A DNA stretch of 64,000 nucleotides from a virus (IMGVR_UViG_3300026549_002532:12676-76675), one strand, 5' to 3'. Counted from the stretch's first letter, positions 15,861 to 39,894 are shown. Notes: a model not told the origin generated them from the sequence alone. A program made the numbers and translations.

Positions 15861-15895
15861 CAAAGGTATGGCCCAAAAGTGCGCTCTATCTGCAC
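15861..15895 (-). promoter_or_regulatory. GTGC-N9-GCAC operator A plus -7 element
   Basis: GTGCGCTCTATCTGCAC 15879-15895; TACCTTTG 15861-15868; 10 bp spacer. Confidence 0.75.
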
Positions 15896-16158
15896 AGCAA
15901 AAAATATTTTCAAAAAAAAGTGGCAAGGTCGGTTTATTTCCGTCCCTGCCATGATGCAGATAGAGACCGCAAGGGTTGTTAAATCTTTTTGATTTGTAGT
16001 TTGAACAAATCAGTCTTTCTACCGTTGAAAGTGTAGCCGATGCCAAACGAGAAATTGAAACGGCGTTTCTTTTTCTCGGTTGTAACTTCACTTGATCTGT
16101 GCTGCTCGATTACAGCAAAATTTGGTTGGGCGTTTGTTGGTTCCATGATTCACTATTG

Positions 16159-16872
16159 TTAATCGTTACAATACTTTATTAACATCGCATACATCATTTC
16201 ATACAATCCTAATGAAATGAGTGTTGTGGCATCACCATCGTGATCAATTCCTACCGTTGCAGTCCTATCATGTGTCAATACTAAATTTATCATAGTTCCC
16301 AAATATGCTGCTTCTGCCGCAACGCGGTCGAGAGTTTCCCACTCCTCGCCGTCATTATATATTTTTGCCTTGGGATTTGCCCCTAGTTTGAGCAGACGCT
16401 CCATTTCTTTTACCTGCAATTTACACACAGCGACATATAGGTCAATGTCGAGCTGTGTTGCACCAAACTTCGTGAGTTGAGATTTGTCTTTAATCCAGAA
16501 CACGTCTTCTATAGATGCGTCTGTTTCATCGCTATAGATAAAACCTGCACCGCTTTGACCATAGTCAATGTATGGGATTTCGTCGTCGAATGAAAAGTTG
16601 CTGAACTTGTCGATGAGGATTTGTTTGATTTCTTCATTGAGCTTCAGCGTTTCGCGCACTTTTTCCACATAGCCGGATTGCCATCCTTCGGGTTGTTGAA
16701 TGGCACGCTCTACCGACATGGTGATGAAGTGCAACGGAATATACACACTCCATGTGTAAAGTGCCGGCATCGGTTCGCCATCGGGAATGGTGGCAAGCGT
16801 TTTCCGCAACCTTTCTGGAGCCGTATTAAGCAATGCGAAAGCGATTTCTCGAATTTTATCTTGAAAAATCAT
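16159..16872 (-). CDS. Hypothetical protein with ankyrin-like C-terminal motif
   Basis: LYVAVCKLQVKEMERLLKLGANP; own operator/promoter. Confidence 0.65.
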   Translation of the reverse strand: MIFQDKIREIAFALLNTAPERLRKTLATIPDGEPMPALYTWSVYIPLHFITMSVERAIQQPEGWQSGYVEKVRETLKLNEEIKQILIDKFSNFSFDDEIPYIDYGQSGAGFIYSDETDASIEDVFWIKDKSQLTKFGATQLDIDLYVAVCKLQVKEMERLLKLGANPKAKIYNDGEEWETLDRVAAEAAYLGTMINLVLTHDRTATVGIDHDGDATTLISLGLYEMMYAMLIKYCND

Positions 16873-16889
16873 GAGTTATATTTTTGCCG

Positions 16890-16924
16890 CAAAGATATGG
16901 CTCAAAAGTGCGCTCTATCTGCAC
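16890..16924 (-). promoter_or_regulatory. GTGC-N9-GCAC operator B plus -7 element
   Basis: GTGCGCTCTATCTGCAC 16908-16924; TATCTTTG 16890-16897; 10 bp spacer. Confidence 0.75.
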
Positions 16925-16963
16925 AACATAGAAAAAATGCACTGTTTAATAAAATTTTCAGCG

Positions 16964-17485
16964 TTAGTACATTGTTTGAGTGTCGCAATCACCTGACGGG
17001 GGCAATGGCAAGCCACGACCATCAACCATAGTTAGCGGAGTGTAGCCGTCACGAAGTGCGTTTGTGTATTCGGCAAAAGCATAGATGTAATGCCCATTGT
17101 GCGCTTGCTCGACTGCGAGTTTGAACCATTCGACATATTCGGGATCTCGACCGAGTGCAAATCGGGAGAGTTCCCGATATTCCTCGATGATGCGCAAAGC
17201 GTTTTCATGAGGAGTCATGTCGGAATAATCCCACGGCAGATTGCAGTTGTGCGTCAATACGGCCAATTCATTATCGGTTGTATCGCAGAACAAACCGCAA
17301 TCTTTCCAAGAGTTTTGCTTCACGGTTAGCCAACAGCGATAGCCAGCACCGTTTGGACTGATGTAAGCACAAACACGGAATTTCTCATAGCCTAGTTTAT
17401 GAAGCTCGGCTACAGTATCGAAATATTTGACAAACTGTTTATGATAATCCTCCATAGTGTTTATGCGATTAGTTGGCATAGGCAC
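16964..17485 (-). CDS. Hypothetical protein, last gene of defence cluster
   Basis: ORF track; overlaps upstream stop. Confidence 0.6.
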   Translation of the reverse strand: MPMPTNRINTMEDYHKQFVKYFDTVAELHKLGYEKFRVCAYISPNGAGYRCWLTVKQNSWKDCGLFCDTTDNELAVLTHNCNLPWDYSDMTPHENALRIIEEYRELSRFALGRDPEYVEWFKLAVEQAHNGHYIYAFAEYTNALRDGYTPLTMVDGRGLPLPPSGDCDTQTMY

Positions 17486-17979
17486 GTGGCGAGCAGGACT
17501 ACCTGCGGTAGTGATGGCAGCGACGTGTCGGTGCGGTTAGCGAGGTAAGTGTCAACGAGGACTTTGCGAAGCTGTTGGGCGGTAGCCGGCTCTTTCATCA
17601 GCTCGAAAAGTTCGTGGTCAATCTCTGCGCACTTGTAGAAGTTACGCAGGGTGGAGATGGCATAACTACTGGGCGAGTTGCCCGGAACACGGGGAACGAG
17701 CCGCCAGAACGGCTCACCGCTCATGTGGTAGTACGGCATCCCGATATTGGGCTTGAAGTGAGCGATGTGACGCGTGTAGCGCAAATCGTTCAACTTGAAA
17801 GCCGTGAGCAGAGCCTCGCTCAGCTCAATCTGAGGCGAGCGAATGATGCCGCACTCCACCAGGTCGATGACTGCCAACAGCAGCAGCGGCTTGTGCGGTG
17901 CCAGCTGCCCACCTTTCTTGTTCACCGAAAGGTGGTCAAAGCACTGCAGATAATATGCCAAACCCTTATCGCCCATCAT
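17461..17979 (-). CDS. Stand-alone SBD-like (phosphorothioate-recognition-type) domain, no HNH
   Basis: APHKPLLLLAVIDL..MPYYHM..EPFWRL motifs of SBD-HNH nucleases; hydrophobic tail instead of nuclease. Confidence 0.65.
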   Translation of the reverse strand: MMGDKGLAYYLQCFDHLSVNKKGGQLAPHKPLLLLAVIDLVECGIIRSPQIELSEALLTAFKLNDLRYTRHIAHFKPNIGMPYYHMSGEPFWRLVPRVPGNSPSSYAISTLRNFYKCAEIDHELFELMKEPATAQQLRKVLVDTYLANRTDTSLPSLPQVVLLATCLCQLIA

Positions 17980-20900
17980 TCAACGTCCTCAATCGCGACA
18001 TCATACTTGATGTCCTCGGTACGGGTCAATTCGATGTTATCAGCGGTAGATGTATCATCGTTGGTGAAAAATCGGTTGTTTTGACCGATTTTCCAACCGT
18101 TCAAGAAACCGCCATCGGGGTAGATTGAAAGTTTCTTTCCTGCAAAAGAAATCGTCAACTCGCGCCAATGCGTGAGCGTGCGACGCTCTTGCGACACGAT
18201 GGGTTGAAGTGTGCCCTCGTACCTGTCGCCATGCTTGTCGTTGAAGTCTTCAAGCCAGCGCTCTGCAATATCTTTGAGATATTGGTCACGCAGATAGCTA
18301 CCGGCAAGTGCGGCTTGAATACTTGGTTTCATATTCGGCTCGTCGTACTTCTCAATCTTGAATGAGAGTGAGAAGTCTTTGCCGATTAGTTTGACAAAGT
18401 GTTCCACAGTCTGCAGGGCAAGTACGATGGCAAGCACGCTTTTGAGGTGTTCGTCCTGATAGAACACTTCAATCTTTCCCTTGTGCTGCTTGCAGTGTGC
18501 GAGGAACTGCTCAACAATCCCCTGGGCATTCTCTTGAATGATTGCGCCCAAAGTCTTTGAGTTGATATTGCGTGAGCGGTTTCCGCTAAGTCTGAAAATC
18601 TTGGTGGTCGGTTTCGGTGACGTGTCAACCGAAACGGCATTGATGGCCGGATTTTCAACCTGTGCGCAATACATCGTTTCGTTAGCCCATTTGTCGTTGA
18701 GTGAAGCAAATTCGGCATTGTTGGTCACATAGAGCAGACCATCAATGTAAGCGATAGGATAAACGCCCTTTGCCGCAAAAGGATTGTCGAATATCTTCAC
18801 ATCTTTTGTCCAGCCCTTGATGGCTTGCACCATCTGGATGATGGGCACATTCATGGGCGCATGGCCCTCGGCAGCGATGCAGAATGTGGGTTCAAGCCCT
18901 CGACCGGCGAAGTTGTTGAGGTGCTGGCCACGCCAACTGTTTTCAGCATCGCTGTAGTTCCATGTCGAGAAGTCATTGGTGACAAACAATGTCGGTGCGG
19001 TGCTTGCCTTTCTGAAAGCACGCTCCAGCTCTTGAATCGACAATTCATGAGCGTTGGGCAGCAGCGCGGCGATTTCTTTAGGCAGATTTTCAGCCGATTC
19101 TTCTTCCTCCTGAATCCACGCAAGCGCCAAATCAATGTCGATATATTTCATAAATCGCAAAGTGAACTTGTCAAGGATTACATCCTTTGTGTTGCGCTGC
19201 TTGGCTTCAAGCAACATTCGCTTTGCGATTTTCACGACTGCGTTCATGATAACCACGCTCGACAACTGATTGGCATAACCCGCGCCGCCGGGGTTGGTGT
19301 CGAACACGCAGAGGTGGCCGTTGGGCATGATGGCGAAGTCCACCGCTCCGCGCTCTTTGCCGAGGTGTTCGACAAGTGCTTGGGTAAACACCACGCCCAG
19401 CGTGAACAACAAGTTGGTTTCGGCATCACGCTCCGAGATCCAACTGTTGCTTCCCTTGTGGCGCAAACGGATTTCGGCAAAATCGGTTTGGATTAGTCCA
19501 CCAATGATGACGTTTCTTCTGATTAAAGATGGGTCATAAGAGCCGTGGCATGGTCTGCGCTGCCCCACATCTTTTCCGCTGATGACGTAGTGGAAACGAG
19601 GCTTGTCCGGGTCGCGTGGGAAGACGGGATTCATGTCATGCGGCAGTTTCAGCGGATTCTCGCGGTCAGCGACTTCCGTCTCTATCACCGCACGACCGCA
19701 TCGCTGGCAGTAGCAATAGCCGAAGCCCTGTCCCTCGTTGTAGTAGAGAATCTTGGCATAGCCCGTGTCGCGGTTGCTTCTCACCGAGAACAAGTGCGGG
19801 TCTTTCGGGCCCGAAGTCCAGTCATCGGTGTCGATGAGCTGTGCGCTGACATGGGTATAGACATTGTTGTCAAGGATGCGCGTCTTGTCCTCATTGATGT
19901 CGGGCATGAAAGCCGCAGGCTGAATGAGCGTCAATGCCTTATCGTCATTCACCGGCCAGTTTATCATGTGGTCGAGTGCGTTGGCATCATCAATGACGGT
20001 CTTGTTTCGGTTATGATAGATTTGCATGAATACCCTCGCGTCCTGGTACTGGCTTGACGTTTGCACGCCACGCACGGTGTAAACGACACCATCAACGACT
20101 ACCGCATTGCCGGGCGCATATTGTGCGATGGCCTCGCGCAGCGAGTAGGTCGGATTAGATGAGCTTGAACTGTTCACGTAGTCACGTTTGCCGCTGGGGT
20201 CAAGGTCAAGCGACAGCACGTTGACCGGCATATTGGCATTCGGCGAGAAGCGATGCGTTGCCCAATAGGTAATCAAGCGAGCGTTCAACTCGTCGAAATA
20301 TTGCCATTTTAACTTGTTGCGGAATCTTGTGTTGGTCGCCGTGCGCAGAGCCACCGCATAGTCTTCGAGTTTGAGACTCAACTCGGAGTAGCAACGGCGG
20401 TTGTGCTCTGCCGCTTTTTGCACCACATAGTTCAACTGCCCCTCAAAGATGGTGCCATCGAGCAATGCGGTCAACCCGCTGCGTAAGTCTCCGCTCAACG
20501 GCTCGGAGCATTTGCGATTGAACAATTCATACATTGTGCCCTCGGGTTCTCCCAGCATCTGGTCGGGGCTAACGGTAGCATTGTTTTGGTCAACGATTTC
20601 TTTGAAGCCACTTGGGGTGGCCTCGATGCGGAATGGCGTGAAGTAGTCCACTACCTTTTGGTTGAGACTACCGCCATGTGCGCCCTCGGTGAAAACTCCA
20701 AAGGCACGCACGAGGAATGAGTTGACGTGACGCTGCACCACTTGCGGACTTTTCAGATCGACCGACGGCACTTCGACGGGTCGGCTGATAATAGTCGGGA
20801 TAGGATTATACAATGTGCGCAGACCGATAGCGTCAGAGCCGCACAAGGTGATGCACACGCTGCGCACTTTGTTGTTACGTCCGCTTCGTCCGGCACGCTG

Positions 20901-23900
20901 CTTGTAGTTCGACGGCATGGGTGGCACCGAACTCAACATCACCACTTCAAGATTGCCCAGGTCAACACCCATTTCCATCGTTGTCGAGCAAGCGAGAATG
21001 TTAATCAAGTGCTTCTTGAAGTCAAGCTGCATTTTTCTCGCAATCGCCTTATCGACTTGGGCGGTATGCTCTGCCTGAATGAACAGTTTGGGAATAAGGT
21101 GGATTGAATACAGGCGGTCGGCAAACACGCCGTCGTTTCCCCACAGGTTGTGCTCATAGAGCAGCTTGCGATTTTCTTTTGCCCACGCTTCGAGTTTTTC
21201 GGGCGTGGGTTCACCGCTTGCCGAGCCATGATAATATGGATATGGCGCCCAGTGTTCATGCAAATTCTCGTCAAGGTCAACCGGGATGCCACCCGAAAGA
21301 TAGGGCGAGAAGTGTTTGAAGTTATTCTCGATGGGACGCAGGCTGAATGTGTGACGGTCGGCACTGTCGCTGGTCGTGTCACACAGATACACGTTCTCAT
21401 AGAGCTTGAAACTGATGTTGGTGAGATTCATACGAAGCACATCACCGCGCTCGGGAACGTGCCTTGCGTCGTCCTCATCGTAGTTCGTGGCCGTTTCCAG
21501 AATCTTGTTCTCGGGCACTTGAACGGTCTCCCACAGGGCATCGACCACATTGCTGATGCTGTCGAAATATTCGTTATAGGCATCGTTCAATGTCATGGTG
21601 TTGTCGTCGCGCACAATGAGCTGGCACAAGTAGCGTGCCACACGCGACTGCGTGAGTTTGCCCTCCTCCATCACAGGCTTGCGGGCCGGACGGCGACGCG
21701 GCCTCTCGGTGGCGAAACGCTGGCACTTGAAGATGTCGATGGGGTCGGTGTCGTTGATGCGCAGGAAGAACGACTGGTTACTCCTGATGTTGTAGTCAAT
21801 GAACACTTGAATGAGATTGCGCCAATCTTCGAGGGTGATGGTGTTCGCCTCATTCTCCATGAGTTCATTGAACTGCTCCACGGCTTTCGGCAGTTCCTTG
21901 ATGTTCATGAGCTGCGGGTAGCAGGTCTGGAACAAGCCCATCGTCTCGAACGATGCCGCCGAGGTGAGGTGCTTTGCCAAGTACATCATCATGATGCTTT
22001 GCACATATCGCCTGACGATGATGTCGGGGATTGTGCCGTCGTCGTTCAGCTCGTCGCTGTCGCTCGACCGTTTGATGAATTGCGAGCAGAATGTTGTGCA
22101 ATGGCGGTCGTTTTTCAGCAGTTCGGCAATCTCCATCCACGAGATGCTGTCTTTGAGCTTTGCCCTTTCTTTCTTGCGCTGCTGGAACAATGCCTCATAT
22201 TCATCGGATTCATCGTCATATTGACGCATTTTCTTCGTCAACTCGTCCACAATCTTCTTCTGTTTCTCGGCCTCGGCTTTGCGGCGGCACAATTCGGTGT
22301 AGATGGTGCTGTATAGCCACATCCTTTCTTGCTCAAGGTTTTGCTTGAGCGTGGCTTTGGCGGCTGCCTGACGGCTATCGACAAAGCTGATGAATTGCTG
22401 TCCGTCATGTAACATAATCGAGCCATCGGTGGGCGGCTCGGCTTTGTCGAGCTGGTCAAGCACCGATGGAGCGAGCAGACGGCTGATGAAGTCGGCCGAC
22501 AAGCGGAACTTCATCATTCGGGTGTCTTCCAGATTGCCCGAAGCGTCGTTCTCCATGTCTTTCTCGTTGGTGCGTGCGCGCGACTGCTTGCTGTTGCAAT
22601 AGGGGCAACGGCACTGGGTGTTGCCCACCACGTGCCACTCTCCGGGCTTGATTTCTCCGGGCTGCACTTGGATGAGTTGGTCGCCATCGACCTTGAACTT
22701 CACATTGTTATCGCCATGGTTGTTTGCCTGGTTCGACAATGCGAAGATAATGTATTTCAAGTCACCGTCCTCATCGTCGGGGTCGGGCAAGTCGAACATA
22801 TCGCTGTCATCGGTAGCGACTGACTTGTATTTCCAGTCGTTGGTGTCAACCATGCCCACTGCCACATATTCGCCGCAATTCTTGCAGCGGCTCAACTCCA
22901 GCAGCGGCACTTCGTTGCCGTCGTTGGGTGTTTGCGTATAGATGCGGAACGAGCCGTCGGCGTGCTCGGTCAAGCGCACAAACAAGCCATTGTTGGGCAC
23001 GCGGTAGAAATAATGCACTTTGAGCTTCATGTCGGGCACAGGTTGTCCTGCGGCACGATAGCGCACTTCCTCTCGCTCGCACATTTCATCGACGAGCCGA
23101 AGCTGTGTTTCAACATCTGTGGTCTCGGGGAACAACTCATTCAGCGGAACAAAATCTTTGGCGAAGATGGTTTTCCAGCGTTGCTCGTCTTCGCCATGCG
23201 GAATGTTGTCCTCGCCCACGCGCTTGCCGCCTATCACCTCAACTTGCTTGGTGCTCAGTCCTGTTATGCCGGCGATGAATTTGCGCAGTTTCTTGGTTTC
23301 TTCTTTGGCTTTCTCCGGGTCGTCGGTGTTGCCGAAAGTTGCCGATGAAGTGGCAAAGCGCACATCGGCGGCGTCCACATTGAAAGCCAGCAACACACGG
23401 CGCAGCAGCAATGCCAACTCGGCGGCGCCCGCACCGGTGTAGGTGTGGGTCTCGTCGATGGCCACCCAGCGCAGACTTTGCTGCTTGGGGTCGATGAGCG
23501 CCGCGTCGGTGCCACGAAGCAGGATGTATTCGAGCATCGTTGGGTTAGTGAGCAGGATGTCGGGCGGTGTCTGCCGCACCTGTCTGCGGGTATAGAGCAT
23601 TTTGCCGAAACGGTATTTCGTCTCGCCGGTCGCCTCGTCAACATATTCGCCACGCAGCTGCTTGATGCGTGCGCGAAGTCGGTTGGCCTCGGTTGAATTG
23701 TCATCGGCTTTCGGCTCGTTCTCGGGAAGGTCGCCATTATACACCGTGTAGGTGAGATTGGTGCCTTCGAGCAGTTGTTCCAGTCGCTCTTTCTGGTCTT
23801 CCATGAGCGCGTTGAGCGGATAGAGGAAGATGGCCTTGATGGTGCGGCTTTGCACCACATCACCAGCTCCTTGTTGCAGCAGGTCATAGACCAACGGCAA

Positions 23901-24302
23901 CATGAAGCACTCGGTCTTACCCGAACCTGTGCCCGTGGTCACACAGATTGACTTGGGCTTCTGCTCGCCCTTTATCTCAACCGTGCGGCGCAGCAGGTTG
24001 TCCCACGATAGATACTGGTGCTCGTAGGGGGCGTAATACTTGCCTTTTGGCAAGATCTTGCGCCACAGGTTGCCCACGATGGCCTCGGCCTCGGCAGCCG
24101 TCACGCTGTGCACGGGCAGGTAGCTGTTCATGCACTGCACCACCGGCTCGGCGTTGTGGGGAGCGAACAGGTCGCCAATCAGCTTGCGCAGTTGCGCGAT
24201 GTAGCTGGCCTGGCTGTCGTTGCTTGACTCACCGCACCACATCGAGAGCATGGTTTTCTCGACTGCGATGCGATTATTTTTATATAACTCGGCAAAGTTC
24301 AT
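17976..24302 (-). CDS. 2108 aa SF2 helicase with DUF1998-like domain, DruE-like (Druantia type III)
   Basis: TGTGSGKTE, LYPLNALMEDQ, IDETHTY, STTMEMGVDLG, QRAGRSGR, FDTNPGGAGY; C-terminal PLD-like HWREL. Confidence 0.8.
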   Translation of the reverse strand: MNFAELYKNNRIAVEKTMLSMWCGESSNDSQASYIAQLRKLIGDLFAPHNAEPVVQCMNSYLPVHSVTAAEAEAIVGNLWRKILPKGKYYAPYEHQYLSWDNLLRRTVEIKGEQKPKSICVTTGTGSGKTECFMLPLVYDLLQQGAGDVVQSRTIKAIFLYPLNALMEDQKERLEQLLEGTNLTYTVYNGDLPENEPKADDNSTEANRLRARIKQLRGEYVDEATGETKYRFGKMLYTRRQVRQTPPDILLTNPTMLEYILLRGTDAALIDPKQQSLRWVAIDETHTYTGAGAAELALLLRRVLLAFNVDAADVRFATSSATFGNTDDPEKAKEETKKLRKFIAGITGLSTKQVEVIGGKRVGEDNIPHGEDEQRWKTIFAKDFVPLNELFPETTDVETQLRLVDEMCEREEVRYRAAGQPVPDMKLKVHYFYRVPNNGLFVRLTEHADGSFRIYTQTPNDGNEVPLLELSRCKNCGEYVAVGMVDTNDWKYKSVATDDSDMFDLPDPDDEDGDLKYIIFALSNQANNHGDNNVKFKVDGDQLIQVQPGEIKPGEWHVVGNTQCRCPYCNSKQSRARTNEKDMENDASGNLEDTRMMKFRLSADFISRLLAPSVLDQLDKAEPPTDGSIMLHDGQQFISFVDSRQAAAKATLKQNLEQERMWLYSTIYTELCRRKAEAEKQKKIVDELTKKMRQYDDESDEYEALFQQRKKERAKLKDSISWMEIAELLKNDRHCTTFCSQFIKRSSDSDELNDDGTIPDIIVRRYVQSIMMMYLAKHLTSAASFETMGLFQTCYPQLMNIKELPKAVEQFNELMENEANTITLEDWRNLIQVFIDYNIRSNQSFFLRINDTDPIDIFKCQRFATERPRRRPARKPVMEEGKLTQSRVARYLCQLIVRDDNTMTLNDAYNEYFDSISNVVDALWETVQVPENKILETATNYDEDDARHVPERGDVLRMNLTNISFKLYENVYLCDTTSDSADRHTFSLRPIENNFKHFSPYLSGGIPVDLDENLHEHWAPYPYYHGSASGEPTPEKLEAWAKENRKLLYEHNLWGNDGVFADRLYSIHLIPKLFIQAEHTAQVDKAIARKMQLDFKKHLINILACSTTMEMGVDLGNLEVVMLSSVPPMPSNYKQRAGRSGRNNKVRSVCITLCGSDAIGLRTLYNPIPTIISRPVEVPSVDLKSPQVVQRHVNSFLVRAFGVFTEGAHGGSLNQKVVDYFTPFRIEATPSGFKEIVDQNNATVSPDQMLGEPEGTMYELFNRKCSEPLSGDLRSGLTALLDGTIFEGQLNYVVQKAAEHNRRCYSELSLKLEDYAVALRTATNTRFRNKLKWQYFDELNARLITYWATHRFSPNANMPVNVLSLDLDPSGKRDYVNSSSSSNPTYSLREAIAQYAPGNAVVVDGVVYTVRGVQTSSQYQDARVFMQIYHNRNKTVIDDANALDHMINWPVNDDKALTLIQPAAFMPDINEDKTRILDNNVYTHVSAQLIDTDDWTSGPKDPHLFSVRSNRDTGYAKILYYNEGQGFGYCYCQRCGRAVIETEVADRENPLKLPHDMNPVFPRDPDKPRFHYVISGKDVGQRRPCHGSYDPSLIRRNVIIGGLIQTDFAEIRLRHKGSNSWISERDAETNLLFTLGVVFTQALVEHLGKERGAVDFAIMPNGHLCVFDTNPGGAGYANQLSSVVIMNAVVKIAKRMLLEAKQRNTKDVILDKFTLRFMKYIDIDLALAWIQEEEESAENLPKEIAALLPNAHELSIQELERAFRKASTAPTLFVTNDFSTWNYSDAENSWRGQHLNNFAGRGLEPTFCIAAEGHAPMNVPIIQMVQAIKGWTKDVKIFDNPFAAKGVYPIAYIDGLLYVTNNAEFASLNDKWANETMYCAQVENPAINAVSVDTSPKPTTKIFRLSGNRSRNINSKTLGAIIQENAQGIVEQFLAHCKQHKGKIEVFYQDEHLKSVLAIVLALQTVEHFVKLIGKDFSLSFKIEKYDEPNMKPSIQAALAGSYLRDQYLKDIAERWLEDFNDKHGDRYEGTLQPIVSQERRTLTHWRELTISFAGKKLSIYPDGGFLNGWKIGQNNRFFTNDDTSTADNIELTRTEDIKYDVAIEDVE

Positions 24303-24320
24303 ATATCGTAGTTTATGTGG

Positions 24321-27556: not shown

Positions 27557-27566
27557 GATAATTAAT

Positions 27567-28805: not shown

Positions 28806-28812
28806 CGTCTTT

Positions 28813-29778: not shown

Positions 29779-29782
29779 AGAT

Positions 29783-30562: not shown

Positions 30563-33500
30563 TTATTCCATTGATTGAATGTGGGATTCGATAAACTCTT
30601 GCTCAAACATATCAAGGCCATACTTCAAATAGAGCTGGCGGTCGATGTCTGATATTGACCGTGACCAGTCTATATCAGAGTTGTCTGTGAAGTCCTGAAT
30701 TGGAACATATGCCCATACAGCTGGTGGGGTATGTTGCGTGATTTTTAAGGTACCCACTAGGCATCTTAAAAATTTAGTTCTTAGATATTTCGCGCAATTA
30801 ATCGCCTCTTTTTCTGTGTCAAAAGCACCAATACTAATAAATGTTGATGTGGCAGAATCCCCTGGCTTACCAATTTCAGACTTGCCAATTATTCGTGCTG
30901 GCACTGGATTGCCTACAGTTCCAGCGGCTCCGTCTGCCTCAGAAATAAAGACTTTATGTTTTTCTATATTGTTGTTTTTAGGATAACGAGGAGATAAGTA
31001 TTTTCTAAAAACATATTTCCAAACACGATTAGAGCCAACAAGACCTAAAATGCGATAAAAATCACTTTCATTATCAACAATATCATGAAATACGTATGGC
31101 AGGGCTTCAATCGTTGATGTTTTAAGCTCGTATTCCTCGTTCGGACCTAATTCAGTTACGGCAGGGCGTTTAGATTGAATGTATCTTAAGCGATCCATTG
31201 CGCTGTTCGGAAAATCAGTCAAAAAAATGTCATTAAATTTTAAATCAGATCTTCCTCCAAACACTAATGATTTAAGACTCTCCGAATCTTTGAGATCAAA
31301 TTTTGAAGCAATTCCTCTTAGAGTATCATTTGGGAGAAATTTTTTTATAGGGGAGTATTGAGCATTTGCATTGCGCAAAATGATTACAATACCGCCATTA
31401 ATACTCACACTTGGGAAACAAACGCTTGAGTCTTGAGAAAAAAATGCAACTCTAAGATGAGGATCGTTTAACATTTTTTGATTCCATATTGCAGGTGTAA
31501 GACCTGCATTAAATAAGAATCTAGCTGGCGAAATCAGAGTATATAAATCGCACAATGCTTCAGCCAAATTATAGAAATAATGATAAACTGGAGCTTGGCG
31601 ATTATTTACATTATTAGTTTCTTGATATGGTGGGTTGCCCACTACAGCATCAAAATTTATCATAGCTTTACTTGTTGTGCCATTCCAATATCCGAGAGAC
31701 TTAATTGCTGCTACAAGACCGTCTTTGTCTGTTTTGGCACGTTCAATTAGTTTATCTGCTTTAATATTTAGTTTTTTGTCAGGTTCACGGAAGCCCATAA
31801 GGGTGCGACGTGTGATGCTCGCCGCCATCGGGGTGTTGCAAATCACGTAGATGTTTTTGCCCACCACGTCGTCCCACGCGGCTTGCTCCTCGCCAACCGA
31901 GAGGTTGTCGATGGGGTTGTCAAGCAAGCCCACCTCCTCGTAATACTTCAACAGGCGGCGGTACATCGTGTAGGTGACATAGAGCGGATAAAGCCCCGTC
32001 TTGGAATTAATCTCCAGCACACGCGAGGCGATGCCTTCGCCCTCGGCAATCTTGTGGAACACGTTCTCGGTCACGTCGCCGTGGTCCACAAAGCGAGGCT
32101 CGGTGGTGTCGATAAACTCGACCACGTTGCCGTCCTCGTCGAGCACGGCTCGCTGGTTGTCGCCGTCGAACTTCTCGTTGAAGAAACAGTAGCCGCCCAA
32201 TGTGTCGCTCATGTGCATATTCACCACGCGCCACGGGGTGAGCACCGTCTCCTTGTCGGGATTGTGGAAGGTAGAGAATATCCAGGCGATGCGCTTGATG
32301 CGGTCGTCGATGTGCATCGAGTCGGCCTCACGGGCAAGGGCACGGATGCGCTTGCCGGCAGCGGTGAACACCGCCGGATTGTAGCACTTCTTGAACTGGT
32401 TGAACTTTTGCTTGGTCACGCCACGGGGCATGAACTCTTCCCATGAGGCGGGATCGACCAGCGATGTGAAGTTGTCGATGGTGATGCCGGTGTCCTCGTC
32501 GTCGAGCTTGGCACCGTAGATGAGCAGCGGTATGCGCAGCGAGATGCCGCGCAAGATGGTGATGCGCTTGTCGCGCTCGTCGCGTTTTTTCTTCTTCTCG
32601 GCACGCTCACGCTCCAGCTCGGCACGTTCCTCGGGCGTAAGATCTGCTTCAGCTTCCTTGCCTTTCTTGCGAGCCTCACGCATCTTCTGGCGGATTTCGG
32701 CACGCTTTTCTTCCAATTTCTTGCGTTGCTCAGGGGTGAGGTTGTCAATATCCAGGGCCGAAGCCTTTTTGGGCTTTTCCATGTTGGTAGTCTTGGCAAT
32801 CTCAGCTCCCAGCTCATTCAGCTCTTTCAACTCGTCGCCGGCGATGTCGAGCAATGCGTCCACATCGTAGAGGCTGGTGTCGTTGAAGCCGTTGCGCACC
32901 ACGCGGTCAACATAGACCTGCTGCAAGCGACCGAACAGTTCTTCGGCATCATAATCCACCATCTTGCCACCTTTCAGCGAGATGACGTTGCAATATTGCA
33001 GGAACTCATCCATGTTGAGGATGTCCTGCTGCCTGTCGGTGGTGGTGGCGCTGCGCTTCTCCTTTTGGGTGAGAGGCGAATTTTGCGGTCTCGGCGATGG
33101 CATTGAGGGTGCGCTCAGGCGCGAAGTCGAAGACGTAGCACTCGGTCTTCATCTTGCCCTCGCTGTTGATGTAGGGCGACTGCACACGGAAGATGGTCTG
33201 CATATAAGTGGCCGCCGAAGTGGTGTCGCTGCCTTTCATGTAGAAGACGGCAGTCCACGGTTTCACGGTCACGCCGGTAGTCAGGCGACCGCAGGAGATG
33301 GTGATGGTGCTGGTGGCTTCGGGGCGGTCGCCGATGGCACTAAGCACCGCGTCGAGGGCGTTGGAGCGTGTCTCGTCGTCATCACCGTCACCAGCCACAT
33401 TCTTGATGGTGAAACGCTTGAAAATGCGGTGCTTTTCGAGCAACGCTTTCATGGCCTTGGCCTCTTTAACGCCCGGCACGACCCACAGGGTGTGACGGAA

Positions 33501-34529
33501 GCTACGACGGAAGGCATCAGTTGAATAAGGATAGTTGTTGCTATCGTCTTTTGTGCAAAGCAAGTCAAGGAACGAAAGTACATCGTCCTCATGTACGAAA
33601 CGGCCTACATGTTCGGGCGAAGGAAGATCTGCGAGGTCTGCTTTCTTGTTGCCCGTCCACACACGGAAAAACTCACTAAACTTGAACGTCTGACCCTCCT
33701 CAACATAGCCGCTGACGAGCTTACCGAGGTCATAGGTGTATATGTTCATACGCGGCAGTTCAGCGTAGGGGTTGGGTTCGCCCGGGTACTTCTTGTCCCA
33801 CTCGCGTTTGGCTCGCTGTTCCTTGGTGTAGTCCCAAGTGTAGATTTCGCTGTCCTCGAAGTCCTCGTAGAGGTTGAACGGCGTGCCCGAGAGGTGGAGC
33901 AACTTGGTGCGCTCTTTGGTGAGCCATTGGTCAATCACTCGCTTGCCAAGCGCGGTGCGCGTGCCCTCGTGCGCCTCGTCCACCACAACCAGGTCCCAGT
34001 TGGTTTTGAGGATGTCCTGTTTCAACTGCTCATCGTTGTCGCCGCCAACGAGCGTGGAACGGCGCAGGTACTGCATCGACACGAAGAACACCAGGCGGCA
34101 TTTGCCGTCGGTCACACGGCGATTGAGGCTGTAGAAGTCGCCGCTCGACTCATCATCGGTGCGTGTGGCATAGCGATAGTCGGTGCCATCGAAGATTTTC
34201 TTGAAATCCTCGTGCCAGCCCTTATCCACCACGGGGCGGTGGGTGACGATGAGCGTGCGCTTCACGCCCATGCGCCGTGCCAGTTCAAGGGCGCACAGTG
34301 TCTTGCCGAAGCGCATCTTGGCGTTCCACAAGAACTGGCGGAACTTGTCGAGCGGAGTGTAGGTGCGGTCTTCACTTCGGCCTGTGCTGGTGCAGAACTG
34401 CCTCAACGCTTTAGTGATGGCCTCAACCTGCTCGGGTCGAAACTCGATGGCTTCAACGGTCTCGTCGCCAAACAAGCTGTCGCTCTTGGGTTTGCCTTGA
34501 TATTGTCCAAACGTTTGATATGTTTCCAT
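30563..34529 (-). pseudogene. Eco57I-like helicase-methyltransferase-specificity protein split by one frameshift near 33073
   Basis: NAKMRFGKT, VDEAH, LSGTP in 5' ORF; TPWRVVN, EINSKTGLYPL, GNPPY in 3' ORF; joined reading AKFAS-LTQKEKR needs 2 extra nt. Confidence 0.8.
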
Positions 34530-34540
34530 ACTTCCGTTTA

Positions 34541-35638
34541 TTATTTGTTTACCTTTTTACTTTTATTCTCGTTGATCACGTCGAGGAATTTCTGCTGACG
34601 TGTTCCTTTGTCCTTGAAACTTTGGTTGGTCAGATTGTCACGATGCAGGTCAATCTTTCCGATAAAGTCCTTGATGCGGCACAGCCGCTCACGGGGCTTG
34701 ATGTTCTCGGGTTTCAGGGCTTCGAGGACATCTTCGTCGGGGAACAGGCTTGCCGACTGCTCGGCCTTGATTTTCTTAATCTCAGCATCGGTCTTTTCGG
34801 TCGGGTCGTAGCCCGGCAAGCCGTATTTCAAGCCGTCCATCTGCCACAAGTTCCACGAAATGATATAGGCCGCGCCTTTCATTTCGCCCTCGCCAAGCAG
34901 CGTGTCGAACTTGTCGAAGTAAAACTCCATAAAGGTGACAAACAACGCCTCGCGAGCGAGGAGCAGGTTGTCGCCTTGCCACTCGAAGCCGTAGGTGGCA
35001 CGCAGGGCAATCTTTGCCCACAGCAGCCACTCGGCAGAGGTGGTGGTGTTCTGCCCCACAACAATAAGCTTGCGGTCGAGCAAGCCGATGCGGTGGCGCA
35101 GGTTGCGGATGGGTTCACCGCTCACGGTGTCGTAGCGGCTCACGAGGTACGGGGCTTCACCGCAGGTGATTTCAATACGGCGTGCGGCGACGTAATCTTT
35201 CCACGTCTTGCCCTCGGTGTCGGGGAACACGATGTCGCCCTCGGTTTCAATCCACTCATGGGGATTGTCGGGGTCAGGGCGGTTGAACACGTCGGGGCGC
35301 CCGAACCACGCCTCATCGACGAGGTTGTTCTGTGCGTTGCACACCCACGATGGGGTGAACACCTCGGCCTTGTCCTTGACGCGCCGCGTCTGTTCTTCGA
35401 GCGACTTGCGGGCGCGAGGGCGCACAATTTCGCCATTGTCGCCAGTGACTGCCTCAATGGTGATGGGGTCGGAAAAACCATAACCGGCTCCTCGCTCGGC
35501 GTAGGAGTCGGTTGCCCAATAGATGTTCTCTTGGGTGGTATGGTCTTTGAGAAGCCGCTGAAAACTTTCGGGATAGTTTTCGGCTAACCAGTTCTCTCGG
35601 ATGTCAACAGGTATGTCTAATGGTTTCTTTTTCGCCAT
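34541..35638 (-). CDS. Companion methyltransferase-like subunit of the Eco57I-like R-M locus
   Basis: NIYWATD, KAEVFTPSWVCNAQNN, EITCGEAPY, YGFEWQGDNLLLARE, WNLWQMDGL. Confidence 0.8.
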   Translation of the reverse strand: MAKKKPLDIPVDIRENWLAENYPESFQRLLKDHTTQENIYWATDSYAERGAGYGFSDPITIEAVTGDNGEIVRPRARKSLEEQTRRVKDKAEVFTPSWVCNAQNNLVDEAWFGRPDVFNRPDPDNPHEWIETEGDIVFPDTEGKTWKDYVAARRIEITCGEAPYLVSRYDTVSGEPIRNLRHRIGLLDRKLIVVGQNTTTSAEWLLWAKIALRATYGFEWQGDNLLLAREALFVTFMEFYFDKFDTLLGEGEMKGAAYIISWNLWQMDGLKYGLPGYDPTEKTDAEIKKIKAEQSASLFPDEDVLEALKPENIKPRERLCRIKDFIGKIDLHRDNLTNQSFKDKGTRQQKFLDVINENKSKKVNK

Positions 35639-35649
35639 ATTTTATATTG

Positions 35650-36648
35650 TTATCTCATGCCTAAGCGTTCCATTTCGAACACCATTCCAAAGATGTACAT
35701 TGCTTGCATGAACTCCAGAGTTTCATCACTATGATAGAAATTGTTTTTGTCAATTTTATCCTCAGAGTGTAATAATGCTAATGCTTGGAACTGCGCATTC
35801 AATTTTTTAGCGGCCTCGGTGTCATAGCCAATTCCAATTATGTCAAGCACATATTCGTCCATGGCATAAACTCCACGAGGCTCAAGTAGAGTTTGAGGTA
35901 TGCCCTTTTTTTGCAAGCTATCCCAGTCAATATGCCAATGATATACTGCTCCAATACCTGCATAGATAGGCCACAGGTACCATACTAAAGGGAATAATGC
36001 GTCTTTATGGGTTTTTCCACGTTCCAATAGTTCTTGCCTTAATGCTAAACAAGTGCGTTTCTTTTCGACCATTATCTCTGGAATATGGGGCATTTTCTCG
36101 TTAGGCTCGAGAATTCCCATTCTTCTTGCTTCAGAGATAATGTTCATAGCCATTGCTATATCATTGTCGCGACGTTTGATTTTGCCAGATTCTTGAGCTT
36201 CGCGAACAGATTGTCTCAACACTTCTGCCTCTTTGCTATCTCCCACATTATTCTTGAAGATGTCGCAGAATTGAAATGCCTCTTCAAAATGCCCCATATT
36301 TTTGTATGAGGCGATAACGCCTCTAATGGCATTAGCATAGTTGTTGTCCAGCTGATATGCCATAAGAAAGGCTTTGTTTGCCTCGATATGGTTGCCTTGT
36401 TGCCCATATATAGAAGCCATATTGACCCAAGACTCTTTGTAGTCTGGGGCGATTGAAAGTGATTCGTTGAAGAGGGCTATTGCATCATCAAGCTGTCCAA
36501 TTTGCAATGCACTAACTGCCAATGTGTGGCACCAAATTGGGCAGGATTTATCACATTCTTGTGGGCATGAGTCTCCTGGGCAATCTATTTGTCCATCAGA
36601 GTCACGCCAACAAACGCCTTTTTTCTTTAAGAAATCAAATAATCCCAT
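35650..36648 (-). CDS. TPR protein with Cys-rich N-terminus
   Basis: TPR-like helices (ESWVNMASIYGQQGNHIEA); six Cys in residues ~13-40. Confidence 0.7.
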   Translation of the reverse strand: MGLFDFLKKKGVCWRDSDGQIDCPGDSCPQECDKSCPIWCHTLAVSALQIGQLDDAIALFNESLSIAPDYKESWVNMASIYGQQGNHIEANKAFLMAYQLDNNYANAIRGVIASYKNMGHFEEAFQFCDIFKNNVGDSKEAEVLRQSVREAQESGKIKRRDNDIAMAMNIISEARRMGILEPNEKMPHIPEIMVEKKRTCLALRQELLERGKTHKDALFPLVWYLWPIYAGIGAVYHWHIDWDSLQKKGIPQTLLEPRGVYAMDEYVLDIIGIGYDTEAAKKLNAQFQALALLHSEDKIDKNNFYHSDETLEFMQAMYIFGMVFEMERLGMR

Positions 36649-36657
36649 AATTCCAGT

Positions 36658-37686
36658 TTATTTATCGGTGCTTTCTGCTTGCACTGGTGTGTATATTTCA
36701 TAGAGCTTTTTCACTTTCTCAGCAATTTGGGTTCGATAGTCTTCGGGAGCGATGACTTCGAGGTCGGGGCCGAAGGAGAGAATCTGCTGCTCCAGCTCCA
36801 GGTTGGGGCGCACCTCGATGGAGAAGATGCACTGCTTACGGTCAACCACCTTTTGCGACGGGTGTAGCGGCTTGCTCTCCAAGTAGGGATAGCGCATAGG
36901 ATTGGCGCGGAGCATGATGGACTGCGCCGTTTTGTGCCGATGAACGGTGACGCCCACCACATCGTCGAAATGGTGGTCAAAGTCTATCTCGGTGTTGATG
37001 TAGTATTCCACACCGGGCATCGGCTCAAGGCTCACGATGCGGTCGAGGGCGAGGTTGGTAATCTCGCCGGTGGCATCGTTGCGCCCAAAGGCGAACCAGC
37101 GGTTGTTGTACTGCTTCAGGTAATAAGGATGGACGACAAACTCAATGTCACGGCCACCGTTCTTATAGGTGTGATAGCTGATTTTGAGCACTTTGTGGGC
37201 GGTGACGGCATCAATAATCTGCCCTAAGTATTCCAGCCCTTTGAGTAAGGGGTTCTGCTCAAAGCACACCACACCGGCACTCTTGCCGTCGAGGTTGAAG
37301 CGGCATTCGAGGTTGGTAATCACCTCCTCGATCCATTCATATTGCGACAAGCCGCGGAAACGGGTCAGCATGATGACAACTTGCTGCAGCTGCTGCGCCT
37401 CGGCCTGGCTCAGCGGTTGCTGATTGATGCTGAAGCTCGGGTCGGCATAGCGGTAGTAAACCCGCTTGCCGTCGCGGTGCTTCTCTAGTTCGATTCCATA
37501 GCTGTCTTCCATGAAATTGATGTCGTCGAAAATTTGCCTGCGACTCACACCGCCCTTGATGTTGTAGTCAATAAGGGCTTGCTCGCACGCACTGATGAGG
37601 TCGTCGATATAGAAGCGTCGATGGGTGTTGCGGAAACATGCATCGAGCGTGCGGTAACGAATATTTGCGTTCTTATTTATCGGCAT
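36658..37686 (-). CDS. WYL-domain transcriptional regulator
   Basis: wHTH N-terminus; HPYYLKQYNNRWFAFG..LALDRI; ESKPLHPSQ WCX region. Confidence 0.92.
   Translation of the reverse strand: MPINKNANIRYRTLDACFRNTHRRFYIDDLISACEQALIDYNIKGGVSRRQIFDDINFMEDSYGIELEKHRDGKRVYYRYADPSFSINQQPLSQAEAQQLQQVVIMLTRFRGLSQYEWIEEVITNLECRFNLDGKSAGVVCFEQNPLLKGLEYLGQIIDAVTAHKVLKISYHTYKNGGRDIEFVVHPYYLKQYNNRWFAFGRNDATGEITNLALDRIVSLEPMPGVEYYINTEIDFDHHFDDVVGVTVHRHKTAQSIMLRANPMRYPYLESKPLHPSQKVVDRKQCIFSIEVRPNLELEQQILSFGPDLEVIAPEDYRTQIAEKVKKLYEIYTPVQAESTDK
36668..36684. promoter_or_regulatory. GTGC-N9-GCAC copy in last codons of WYL gene
   Basis: GTGCTTTCTGCTTGCAC; no adjacent -7 element. Confidence 0.5.
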
Positions 37687-37878
37687 ATTGTTCTTGCTAC
37701 TTTTTTCGCAGGCTCAATAAGATTGAAAATCTTATTGTAACAACCTACAAAGTTACTAAATTATATTTTATATAAAGTGTGGTTATTTCGAAAATGTGGA
37801 AAACTTGCACGAAAAATCGCCGAAAGCCGCATTTTCAAAGCTATTTGAGCCCGTTTTCAGCGATTTTTTGAGCGAAAA

Positions 37879-38658
37879 TCACTTCAACTCGTCGCCCCAC
37901 ATGAAGTATGCAATCCACCTTTCGGCTCCGTCGGGATTGAGCAACGAGAAAAACAAGGCGGGATTCTGGTCTTCGCCGCCGTCAGTGAAGTATTTCGCTT
38001 CGGTCTCGGGTTTGAGACGGAACTTGCGCAGCTCACTGCCGCTGAAGAAAGTGATGGTCTCAATCGGCTTGAGGTCGTATTTCCCGGGTTGGCATAACTC
38101 GTCGCCAAGCATGCCAATCTCCACGGCAAGCGACTGGTTGGGCTGCAAGTTCGCCAAGTGTGATTGAGTGAGTGGCACGTTTACATTAGTGCCCTCAACG
38201 GTGAGGCTGGCCAGCTCCACCTTGTGGGCGGGCGGCAGGTTGTTCTCGTCAATGTCGTAGTCCCAGAGCCACAGTTTGCCTTTCACATCTGTTATCGGCT
38301 CGTCGAAAATGTGTGCATCGGTCAGGTGCCAGTAGTAGAGCTTATCATCATTGCTCTCACCGGCAGCCCAGATGCTGCGGGCGTTGTCCTTATCGATGCG
38401 CTCCACGGTGACGTAGCCGATGATGGCGTTGCCCGGCATATCGGGGAAGTCGGGCAGGTTGCCGAAAATCTGTTCGTTGAATATTTCCTGCACCCACTCG
38501 ATGGGTTCGTTATTCATCATGCGCTCAGAGGTTTTCTTACTGGTGTGAATGAGGATGCGGCCCGGCAGTCGCTTGGGTTGCCAAGTGCGGTTTTCAACGT
38601 CTTTGATACCAGCAACGATTAACGAAGCCCACGGTTGCTGAACTGATAAAACTTTCAT
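37879..38658 (-). CDS. ASCH-domain protein with C-terminal extension (likely start MKVLS)
   Basis: LSVQQPWASLIVAGIKDVENRTW..RILIH. Confidence 0.85.
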   Translation of the reverse strand: MKVLSVQQPWASLIVAGIKDVENRTWQPKRLPGRILIHTSKKTSERMMNNEPIEWVQEIFNEQIFGNLPDFPDMPGNAIIGYVTVERIDKDNARSIWAAGESNDDKLYYWHLTDAHIFDEPITDVKGKLWLWDYDIDENNLPPAHKVELASLTVEGTNVNVPLTQSHLANLQPNQSLAVEIGMLGDELCQPGKYDLKPIETITFFSGSELRKFRLKPETEAKYFTDGGEDQNPALFFSLLNPDGAERWIAYFMWGDELK

Positions 38659-38701
38659 ATTTGAAGCAGTTTTTTGAGGGGAATAATCCATTTAACTGCC
38701 G

Positions 38702-38736
38702 CAAAGGAAAAACCTAACTGTGCGCTCTATCTGCAC
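38702..38736 (-). promoter_or_regulatory. GTGC-N9-GCAC operator C plus degenerate -7 element
   Basis: GTGCGCTCTATCTGCAC 38720-38736; TTCCTTTG 38702-38709; 10 bp spacer. Confidence 0.7.
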
Positions 38737-38806
38737 AGCAAAAACTTTTTTTCAAGAAAAGCACAAAAAAAACACTCAAAGAGCGATTTCTGTGCAGCCA
38801 ATATAT

Positions 38807-39007
38807 AAAAAAGCGCAAACTGCGCATTATACAAATTGAAGGTCTTAGGACAAACCTAGCAGTCGATAATGATAGCAGTTCACGCCTATGCGGCGAGAAC
38901 CACTATACTTCCGTGACTGCTTAAAATTGAAAGTGTCCTAAGTTCTCAATTTGTCAGGAGTATAATGTTCCCTTGTTTCCTCGATGTCTGTCAAACTTGA
39001 CGTTTGA
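38807..39007 (-). ncRNA. Candidate rod-like structured sRNA between ASCH genes
   Basis: TAATTTTG 39013-39020; long stem 38832-38953; terminator GCGCA-GTT-TGCGC plus T6. Confidence 0.55.
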
Positions 39008-39059
39008 CGCTGCAAAATTAGGAAAATTTTTCTAATTGGCAGGTGATTACGAGGAAATT

Positions 39060-39800
39060 TCAACTGTTGAGCGGATAGTTGCACGTAAGCAACAGTTTCG
39101 CTCTGGGTGCTTTGCCCGACTTGTTAAACACGCTCGGGTAGAGAACCAGCTCGTCATCGTTGGGGCGTTGCTCCCAAAGAATGTCGCAGCCTTTGTTCCA
39201 GAGGAAAGACTTCGACTGCTGGCCGCAAATGACGGTGAACCGCTCAAAGTCTCTGAGAAGTCCGTCATTTTCGAGCGCACAACCAGCGAGCGTGCCGGTA
39301 AGCTCGAAGGTGATGTTGCCTCCTCGCGATGCGAAGCGATAGAACTTTTCATTCACTGGAATGACAAGTTCTTCGTCGTGGCGGAAAGCATAGGGCAGTT
39401 TGGCATGAAACACATGACTGGGGATGTCATCCGCGTCATACGGACTGCGAAGCTCCTTGCCCAGTGGTGTGTCAAACTCATGAGCTTTGGTCAGCAAGAC
39501 TGAAGGCTCATGGACGGCAGCCCACTGGCTCTCGGTGCCATCGGCTTTGGCCAGCACATCGACGAAGCCGACACACTTGCCGGTAGGCAGGTCGGCGGTC
39601 GGCGGCAGGTTGCCGAACAGTTGATGGTTGTTGACTGCCTGGAACCATTCCAAAGGAACGTCAGACATCAAGAAACATGGGAGCGCATAGATGTAAAGGC
39701 GGCATCCCTTTGAGAAATGGTCGCCGAAGATCGCATTTCTCAAGCCTCGTACAAGCATTGTAGCGAAAGGCTGCTGAATGAAAAGATTTCTTGTTTCCAT
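39060..39800 (-). CDS. Degenerate ASCH-like paralog
   Basis: LFIQQPFATMLVRG; shares NHQLFGNLP..DLP / NEQIFGNLP..DMP with 37879 gene. Confidence 0.7.
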   Translation of the reverse strand: METRNLFIQQPFATMLVRGLRNAIFGDHFSKGCRLYIYALPCFLMSDVPLEWFQAVNNHQLFGNLPPTADLPTGKCVGFVDVLAKADGTESQWAAVHEPSVLLTKAHEFDTPLGKELRSPYDADDIPSHVFHAKLPYAFRHDEELVIPVNEKFYRFASRGGNITFELTGTLAGCALENDGLLRDFERFTVICGQQSKSFLWNKGCDILWEQRPNDDELVLYPSVFNKSGKAPRAKLLLTCNYPLNS

Positions 39801-39859
39801 TACAGTTTTTTAGTTGGTTTAACTTTCCCCCTCTTTAGTTTGGGGGCTAACCAAAACTG

Positions 39860-39894
39860 CAAAAGTGGGCATAAACAGTGCAGCCTATCTGCAC
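39860..39894 (-). promoter_or_regulatory. GTGC-N9-GCAC operator D plus degenerate -7 element
   Basis: GTGCAGCCTATCTGCAC 39878-39894; CACTTTTG 39860-39867; 10 bp spacer. Confidence 0.7.

Follow-up and report, generated by a model that had tools for sequence, protein, structure and literature searches.

Regulators with a WYL domain (DriD, PafBC, DdaA, BrxR and CapW) are emerging as sensors that couple DNA damage or infection to the expression of defence genes. Dyad operators are already known for such regulators in BrxR defence islands, in the damage and defence regulons of DdaA, and at promoters where DriD replaces the -35 element. DriD of Caulobacter crescentus (PMC9186387, PMC13004042) serves chromosomal damage-response genes; their promoters have no -35 element, the DriD site lies over the -35 position, always equally far from the -10 element, and sigma region 4 lies on the opposite face of the DNA from DriD (PMC13004042). 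PafBC of Actinobacteria, a heterodimer or fusion protein, also activates -35-less promoters, from a non-palindromic -26 element at a fixed distance from the -10 element (PMC11804915). DdaA, a WYL activator of Acinetobacter and other Moraxellaceae, recognises CGWCA-N5-TGWCG and activates DNA-damage and anti-phage genes (PMC12392091, PMC13010146). The inverted repeats of BrxR have 10-11-bp arms and a 5-bp spacer, lie between promoter and gene, and mediate roadblock repression (PMC9122601). No paper on a WYL regulator or its operator in Bacteroidota was found in the literature searched. Here, we analyse a 64,000-nucleotide stretch of viral DNA (IMGVR_UViG_3300026549_002532:12676-76675; the window, with positions counted from its first letter), in which a 17-bp palindrome takes the place of the upstream box at four promoters of an accessory island that also encodes a WYL regulator. 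The virus is a temperate siphovirus-like phage of rumen Muribaculaceae and other Bacteroidales. New here is a putative phage-borne Bacteroidales case in which accessory genes are headed at both ends of a defence island.

Four palindromes, each 10 bp upstream of a minus-strand -7 box, had been reported by a sequence-only reading of the window; all four sites were recovered and the spacing is exact in 4/4. The primary sigma factor of Bacteroidota recognises TAnnTTTG at -7 and TTTG near -33 (PMC7366714). Behind copies 1, 2, 3 and 4 the boxes are TACCTTTG, TATCTTTG, TTCCTTTG and CACTTTTG, respectively, of which the first two match the -7 consensus exactly and the last two with one mismatch each, and at every copy a gene starts 17-60 nt after the box. 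The upstream core element is absent, as the -33 position at the window sites reads GATAG rather than TTTG; the sole TTTG was found 29-30 bp upstream of the -7 box. The 17-mer itself reads GTGCAGATAGAGCGCAC at the three identical sites (copies 1, 2 and 3) and GTGCAGATAGGCTGCAC at copy 4, which differs by three bases. Shuffling predicts 1.68 matches to the loose pattern GTGC-N9-GCAC in the window, which has five; for the specific 17-mer the prediction is 0.07 and the count four, a number reached in 0/100 shuffles. A scan of the whole 76,675-bp virus record found no further copy, even at ≤3 mismatches, and so upheld the statement that the phage core has none. The exact 17-mer had five matches in IMG/VR, all in coding-like contexts and none with a -7 box; this number equals the chance expectation and is uninformative.

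Judged from the sequences, the putative operator unit is a 6-N5-6 dyad, GTGCAG-ATAGA-CTGCAC, with an oriented A-rich centre. The sites described earlier as GTGC-N9-GCAC are real; it is the unit that had to be redrawn. Copies 1-3 are paralogous cassettes with 61-84% identity across 50-93 nt, in which the 17-mer is kept at 17/17 positions, the spacer at 3-9/10 and the upstream 30 nt at 11-21/30. Since the 17-mer was retained while its flanks diverged, it is the part under selection. The fifth GTGC-N9-GCAC reported for the last codons of the WYL gene also exists; with 4/6 dyad pairs and no -7 box behind it, this degenerate site is, taken alone, at chance level. Its position is that of full operator-promoters at the 3' ends of WYL genes in a related phage (G001) and in loci L203, L207 and L198.

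Modules of a dyad plus a box also accompany other WYL genes. With the window and G001 set aside, the gene flanks of 38 further WYL loci (19.8 kb) contained 19 modules, spread over 19/38 loci, against a mean of 0.94 and a maximum of four in 300 dinucleotide shuffles, a ~20-fold enrichment. The module GTGCAG-AAAGA-CTGCAC, 10 bp, TAATTTTG lies directly upstream of the WYL gene in L202, as does ATGCAG-AAAGA-CTGCAT, 10 bp, TAGCTTTG in L199 and L209; in five others (L203, L197, L198, L206 and L207) the module is at or just past the WYL stop codon. No terminase of the phage family was found in the DNA examined around L199 and L202 (10 kb per side) or on the 5.8-kb contig of L197, and the genome loci with a WYL gene have neither a terminase nor an ASCH gene within 1.5 kb. 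An ASCH-like protein as its own regulator was rejected because the dyad adjoins WYL genes that have no ASCH gene nearby.

The half-sites follow the phylogeny of the neighbouring WYL proteins. Clade A (16 rows, support 98/92), which includes the window's protein, has TGCAG-type sites only. Clade B (15 rows, support 100/97) has CGCAA-type sites in 13 rows, its WYL genes being preceded by (A/G)CGCAA-ATAGA-TTGCG(T/C) with the geometry seen in clade A; no sites were detected in clade C of the protein tree. Half-site type matches WYL clade without exception. The spacing is 10 bp at at least 18 clade-A sites (four in the window and at least 14 elsewhere), among which spacers and cargo genes are unrelated. 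Most clade-A dyads have a T-rich tract ending in TTTG 2-4 nt upstream, ~29-30 bp from the -7 box. Clade-B promoters usually have a second, inverted site ~69 bp upstream, and the inverted partial copy upstream of copy 1 in the window resembles this second operator.

The protein encoded in the island carries a WYL domain (PF13280; Pfam E-value 7.6e-12, residues 152-221; PADLOC WYL models, E-value 2.8e-26) and a C-terminal WCX dimerisation domain (PF25583; E-value 7.2e-11, residues 257-328). Its N-terminus had no Pfam match for a winged helix-turn-helix (wHTH), which is predicted there by an AlphaFold model built with 36 homologues (mean pLDDT, the predicted local distance difference test score, 78): helices at 5-19, 27-40 and 49-61 and a beta-hairpin wing at 67-80. 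The best Foldseek matches of the model were PafBC on RNA polymerase (9fnd) and DriD (8tp8, 9pfv, 9pfq) at E-values of ~1e-13, followed by BrxR and CapW at ~1e-7; all four match over the full length with a probability of 1.00. At the sequence level, a PDB search returned no match at E-values up to 1, and the nearest homologues are 79-86% identical. The protein is thus predicted to fold as wHTH-WYL-WCX, most like DriD and PafBC. The link between palindrome and WYL protein suggested by the sequence-only reading gains support from the enrichment, the clade co-variation, the copy number of sites (see below), the fold and the precedent of DriD.

We tentatively read the 17-mer as the operator of this island regulator (36658-37686), through which four cargo units would be activated in the manner of DriD. 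That the island WYL protein or a close WYL paralogue binds the 17-mer is probable from the sequence associations; given binding, the analogy with described regulators makes activation reasonably likely, with repression a substantial possibility. A WYL dimer would dock on the 6-N5-6 dyad GTGCAG-A(T/A)AGA-CTGCAC and occupy the -33 place, with the dyad centre 18-19 bp upstream of the TAnnTTTG box used by the Bacteroidota primary sigma factor. The ligand-bound dimer would then help RNA polymerase onto promoters without an upstream element, and four prophage cargo units would be switched on: the two ASCH-like genes near TerL, the 237-aa gene and the lipoprotein operon. By analogy with DriD-type systems, the ligand may be a nucleic acid such as single-stranded DNA. 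A DriD-like mode is the most likely one because the spacing is invariant, the -33 TTTG is missing and the nearest structural relatives are DriD and PafBC.

Like DriD, the window regulator has the domain order of a homodimer and a similar length, DriD is among its best Foldseek matches, and a palindromic site replaces the upstream element at a fixed distance, here within a -33/-7 promoter. Unlike DriD, it belongs to a different phylum with a different primary sigma factor, shares only ~15% sequence identity with DriD, is phage-borne and heads accessory and defence cargo rather than chromosomal damage-response genes; the DriD site is an unrelated 20-bp motif. PafBC is similar as a WYL activator, as the top Foldseek hit and in using -35-less promoters with an element at a fixed distance from -10, whereas the window has a single gene and a dyad site. 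With DdaA, the putative WYL factor shares a dyad with half-sites 5 bp apart. DdaA, however, is a chromosomal global regulator replacing SOS, while the window shows a local regulon on a mobile island with another half-site, and no chromosomal regulon with the window motif was seen in the host genomes scanned.

The same island protein might instead be a repressor of the BrxR/CapW type that blocks sigma region 4 and RNA polymerase at -33 and is released by a ligand produced on infection or damage. We consider this somewhat doubtful. The WYL gene does head a dense defence island, the setting of the BrxR family (PMC9122601), and, as with BrxR (E. fergusonii pEFER, Acinetobacter) and CapW (PMC9122601, PMC11662680), the island is mosaic, its repeats have a 5-bp spacer, it has more than one box, and the fold matches are significant. 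On the other hand, the matches to the activators are better by about six orders of magnitude, BrxR and CapW are ~50 aa shorter, and a length of 342 aa fits DriD and not these proteins. Published BrxR boxes lie downstream of the promoter rather than at -35, whereas the window dyad keeps a constant distance on the upstream side of the -7 box and heads accessory genes instead of defence operons. An invariant 10-bp spacing, at at least 18 clade-A sites with unrelated spacers and cargo, is not needed for steric repression. The second inverted site 69-75 bp upstream would be typical of cooperative repression, and transcription from the extra box TATTTTTG at copy 4 would begin inside the dyad. Two degenerate -7 boxes had been read as a sign of an activator; TTCCTTTG and CACTTTTG do deviate from consensus, but the other two boxes are perfect, which fits repression no less well, and together with most boxes at related sites they suggest intrinsically strong promoters.

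We also determined how the dyad is distributed in the phage family. In 160 TerL loci (2.1 Mb), the pattern G[TC]GC-N9-GCAC with the box behind it was found at 27 sites, 26 of them on the TerL strand and nearly all just downstream of TerL. The inner bases of the sites in these relatives are unlike those of the window and align as GTGCAR-N5-YTGCAC or GTGCCN-N5-NGGCAC. The gene behind the post-TerL site in ~47 loci encodes a divergent ASCH-like protein homologous to both window paralogues (~240-280 aa in L006-L181, e.g., L031 11823-12605 and L008 9338-10172). Many of these copies combine the dyad promoter with a 5' leader that contains a conserved stem, TTTGGTT...hairpin...TAACCAA. A role of the dyad as an intrinsic terminator of TerL was rejected, as the stem has no more than 4-6 bp and a U-run is missing in most relatives. 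A sigma-54 promoter was rejected too: the TGGCAC right half of relatives recalls a -24 element, but the GG-to-GC distance is 21 nt and not 12.

A WYL-bearing relative, G001, has a TerL that is 93% identical and a WYL protein that is 48% identical to those of the window. It contains six dyad sites with the oriented centre A(T/A)AGA. Two of them head an ASCH-like gene and a truncated ASCH gene with an acidic-protein gene, and a site inside the last WYL codons heads a type I restriction-modification (R-M) operon; the remaining sites head a DEAD helicase gene, an HTH-DUF2130 pair and an 804-aa gene. In the relatives G002-G004, all three complete, and in the 80%-complete G005, no WYL-domain gene was found; these four have variable regions of 10-22 kb and one site each. 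The number of sites is therefore 4-6 in islands with a WYL gene versus one in WYL-less relatives. In some of the latter, a second dyad promoter stands at the place of the window's candidate structured RNA, with a similar transcript start (CAGCGTGAA or CCGCGTGAA). The scan of homologous islands that the sequence-only reading had proposed thus recovered the motif in G001, with the qualification that WYL-less islands retain a single site. Within this virus record the sites are confined to the island, yet the dyad-promoter architecture extends beyond the window island and beyond WYL-bearing phages.

In five host genomes the palindrome-plus-box pattern was near the control level, and generic dyads outside WYL loci lay in coding-like DNA, mostly without a promoter box, so that a general host regulon was rejected. 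The 17-mer is not a Bacteroidetes SOS box either, as it matches neither of the published LexA-like boxes GGA-N5-TCC and CTAA-N5-TTAG (PMC8565304). Across 151 Muribaculaceae genomes, TGCAR-type sites numbered 23 versus two in controls, four of them with a WYL gene within 1.5 kb. Such a site was present in 4/9 genomes with a clade-A WYL protein versus 16/142 others, a weak association. In the same genomes, TGCC-N7-GGCAC followed at 9-11 bp by TAnnTTTG was found 17 times versus one control (loci L259-L275). Many WYL-less relatives have this TGCC type at their second post-TerL promoter, and in two of five genomes inspected it was located next to or not far from a WYL gene; its sequence suggests a sister operator class. 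In one genome (G134:C8), three TGCC-type copies stand in tandem at 1-kb intervals, with a WYL gene 5 kb away. A WYL-profile search of ten Muribaculaceae genomes found 1-5 WYL-domain proteins in each, so control of WYL-less prophages in trans is possible. Among ten host metagenome-assembled genomes (MAGs) of WYL-less prophages, seven had some WYL homologue; only two of these were full-length relatives, with no matching operator found beside those two.

Several observations weigh against DriD-like activation by the island protein. First, copies 1-3 duplicate one cassette and have a weak right half, GCGCAC, with 4/6 dyad pairs. Second, 2/4 -7 boxes in the window, and most at related sites, match the consensus perfectly, as would suit strong promoters under repression no less than promoters that depend on an activator. 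Third, no operator-type promoter was found within the defence cargo (17461-36648, from the TPR gene to DruE). Fourth, the WYL gene's own promoter has no 17-mer-type palindrome at its -33 position, and behind it comes a perfect inverted repeat of unrelated sequence (37715-37737), positioned like a BrxR-type autoregulatory box. Fifth, the dyad-plus-box promoter persists before the ASCH-like gene in the three complete WYL-less relatives, where something encoded elsewhere must serve it. Finally, 19/23 TGCAR-type sites in the 151 Muribaculaceae genomes have no WYL gene within 1.5 kb.

The repeat in the WYL leader has 10-bp arms and a 3-bp spacer, equivalent to 9-bp arms and a 5-bp spacer, is unique in the contig and is unlike the 17-mer. 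The promoter-plus-repeat block is near-identical in G001 (12356-12378), where a T/A swap is compensatory, even though the WYL proteins are only 48% identical. The repeat may be a second or rival operator, a site for another factor, or an RNA leader hairpin. Its uniqueness, the compensatory change and its BrxR-like place would suit an arrangement in which the island WYL protein controls only its own operon, via this repeat, the dyad being bound by another factor such as a host WYL paralogue or some other host or phage protein. The dyad promoters of WYL-less phages, the WYL-domain proteins in all ten Muribaculaceae genomes and the lack of an adjacent WYL gene at most genome-wide TGCAR and TGCC dyad-plus-box sites point the same way. 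We nevertheless regard this arrangement as unlikely, considering that half-site type tracks the clade of the neighbouring WYL protein, that the WYL gene is the sole gene common to all loci with sites, and that the number of sites rises from one to 4-6 only in islands with their own WYL gene. The lack of a visible chromosomal regulon and the difference from published SOS boxes also speak against another host factor.

That WYL-less relatives retain the operator prompts the question whether host and prophage sensors communicate. Temperate Muribaculaceae phages might have wired the post-terminase ASCH-like gene, the small RNA where present and their defence islands to WYL sensors, with WYL-less phages reading the sensor of the host or of a co-resident element; we think this improbable. 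If true, interchangeable operator-promoter cassettes would link prophage cargo to the immune or damage regulons of the host. The locus offers a concrete candidate operator, a promoter design adapted to -33/-7 and a putative four-promoter phage regulon. These could be used for regulon-based annotation of cargo and defence genes in rumen and gut Bacteroidales phages, and possibly as an inducible promoter part.

A last explanation dispenses with a dedicated regulator altogether: a promoter cassette would have spread by recombination, like the promoter-stem-loop cassettes by which T4-type phages shuffle genes, the dyad being a passenger or a recombination joint. The copies are indeed paralogues along 50-93 nt and lie as direct repeats on either side of the variable cargo, and a DNA contig from another bovine sample (run X4) joins position 38738, 2 nt upstream of copy 3, to position 36709. 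Passive spread is hard to reconcile with a 17-mer that is perfectly kept between diverged flanks, with unrelated loci that share dyad and spacing and not flanking sequence, and with half-sites that co-vary with WYL clades, and we consider it highly improbable. The junction in run X4 passes via 22 unrelated letters into the 3' part of a diverged WYL gene, and other DNA contigs skip 38506-40033 and 38949-40027. The operator-promoter cassettes, or places close to them, appear to be points of cargo exchange.

The phage has more than 500 relatives in IMG/VR and ~390 in bacterial genomes, chiefly ruminant Muribaculaceae MAGs. TerL is located at 39990-41627, with portal-like and protease genes close by. 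In every family member, a variable region of 10-26 kb separates TerL from a gene pair encoding a MutS domain I protein and a 413-aa protein; in the window this region extends from ~14.0 to 40.0 kb and forms a 26-kb island. From TerL, the minus strand carries copy 4 with g246, the RNA candidate, copy 3 with the ASCH gene, the WYL gene with its own promoter and then the defence cargo; the far end consists of two small genes, copy 2 with the 237-aa gene, and copy 1 with the lipoprotein gene and the 141-aa gene (Table 1). Copy 4 is 96 bp downstream of the TerL stop codon.

Table 1. Coordinates of the putative operators, promoter boxes and genes of the accessory island in the window.
Feature	Position	Strand	Remarks
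MutS domain I protein, stand-alone	13218-14015	-	Pfam E-value 2.4e-22; first conserved gene past the variable region
Coupled 141-aa gene	14599-15024	-	Same copy 1 unit as the lipoprotein gene (14599-15818)
Lipoprotein gene	15033-15818	-	Lipobox MKKLLLLTLLILPLAIASC read by eye; transcribed from copy 1
-7 box TACCTTTG	15861-15868	-	Consensus match, 10 bp after copy 1
Putative operator copy 1	15879-15895	-	GTGCAG-ATAGA-GCGCAC
Inverted partial copy	15954-15970	+	ATGCAG-ATAGA-GACCGC; centre 75 bp upstream of copy 1
237-aa gene, family unassigned	16159-16872	-	Behind copy 2
-7 box TATCTTTG	16890-16897	-	Consensus match, 10 bp after copy 2
Putative operator copy 2	16908-16924	-	GTGCAG-ATAGA-GCGCAC
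Defence cargo	17461-36648	-	Between the two operator pairs; PADLOC and Pfam
WYL regulator, 342 aa	36658-37686	-	Pfam WYL and WCX; putative cognate binding protein
Fifth, degenerate dyad	36668-36684	-	GTGCAA-GCAGA-AAGCAC; within the final WYL codons
Perfect inverted repeat CAATAAGATT-ttc-AATCTTATTG	37715-37737	-	Starts 10 nt after the WYL -7 box
-7 box TAACTTTG of the WYL gene	37748-37755	-	Own promoter
ASCH-domain gene	37879-38655	-	Pfam ASCH, E-value 5.6e-7
-7 box TTCCTTTG	38702-38709	-	10 bp after copy 3
Putative operator copy 3	38720-38736	-	GTGCAG-ATAGA-GCGCAC
Candidate structured RNA, ~200 nt	38797-39020	-	Between the two ASCH-like genes
g246, ASCH-like, 246 aa	39060-39800	-	33% identity over 135 aa to the ASCH gene, E-value 2e-15
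-7 box CACTTTTG	39860-39867	-	Degenerate, 10 bp after copy 4
Putative operator copy 4	39878-39894	-	GTGCAG-ATAGG-CTGCAC; perfect 6-N5-6 dyad
Extra consensus-like -7 box TATTTTTG	39897-39904	-	2 nt upstream of copy 4

No Pfam match was found for g246, whose homologues directly follow TerL in the ~47 related loci. For the ASCH gene, homology favours the ATG at 38655 as the likely start, while the listed open reading frame opens at 38691. The label 'ankyrin-like' given earlier to the 237-aa gene had to be dropped, as no Pfam support for ankyrin was found at E-values up to 1. Downstream of the WYL gene, the defence cargo, situated between TerL and the head genes of the phage, continues on the same strand with a TPR protein, a type II methyltransferase, a split type IIG R-M system, PDC-S35 TIR, PDC-S11 (DUF4268), PDC-S58 ApeA-HEPN, HNH, and DruH and DruE of Druantia type III, followed by the two small genes; DruE has 2108 aa (E-value 2.7e-266). 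Past the island, the MutS domain I protein was present in only two of the five compared relatives (G001 and G002).

Transcripts of the island were seen in one bovine sample. Low-depth contigs from two metatranscriptome runs (X2 and X3) matched the window at 100% identity across 35600-39902, spanning the TPR, WYL and ASCH genes, the RNA candidate and g246; at this depth, no contig matched TerL at 40500-41700. One contig extends past the predicted start at copy 4. The pattern hints weakly at cargo expression with silent packaging genes.

A search of the window against Rfam gave no family match, including for the RNA candidate between the ASCH-like genes. This element has its own -7 box, TAATTTTG (39013-39020), a 5' hairpin, CAGCGTCAAAC...GTTTGAC, and a terminator-like GCGCAGTTTGCGCTTTTTT. 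Conserved counterparts exist in G001 (L017 10817-11040), L102 and L134, and across the four sequences compensatory changes occur in 13/34 predicted pairs.

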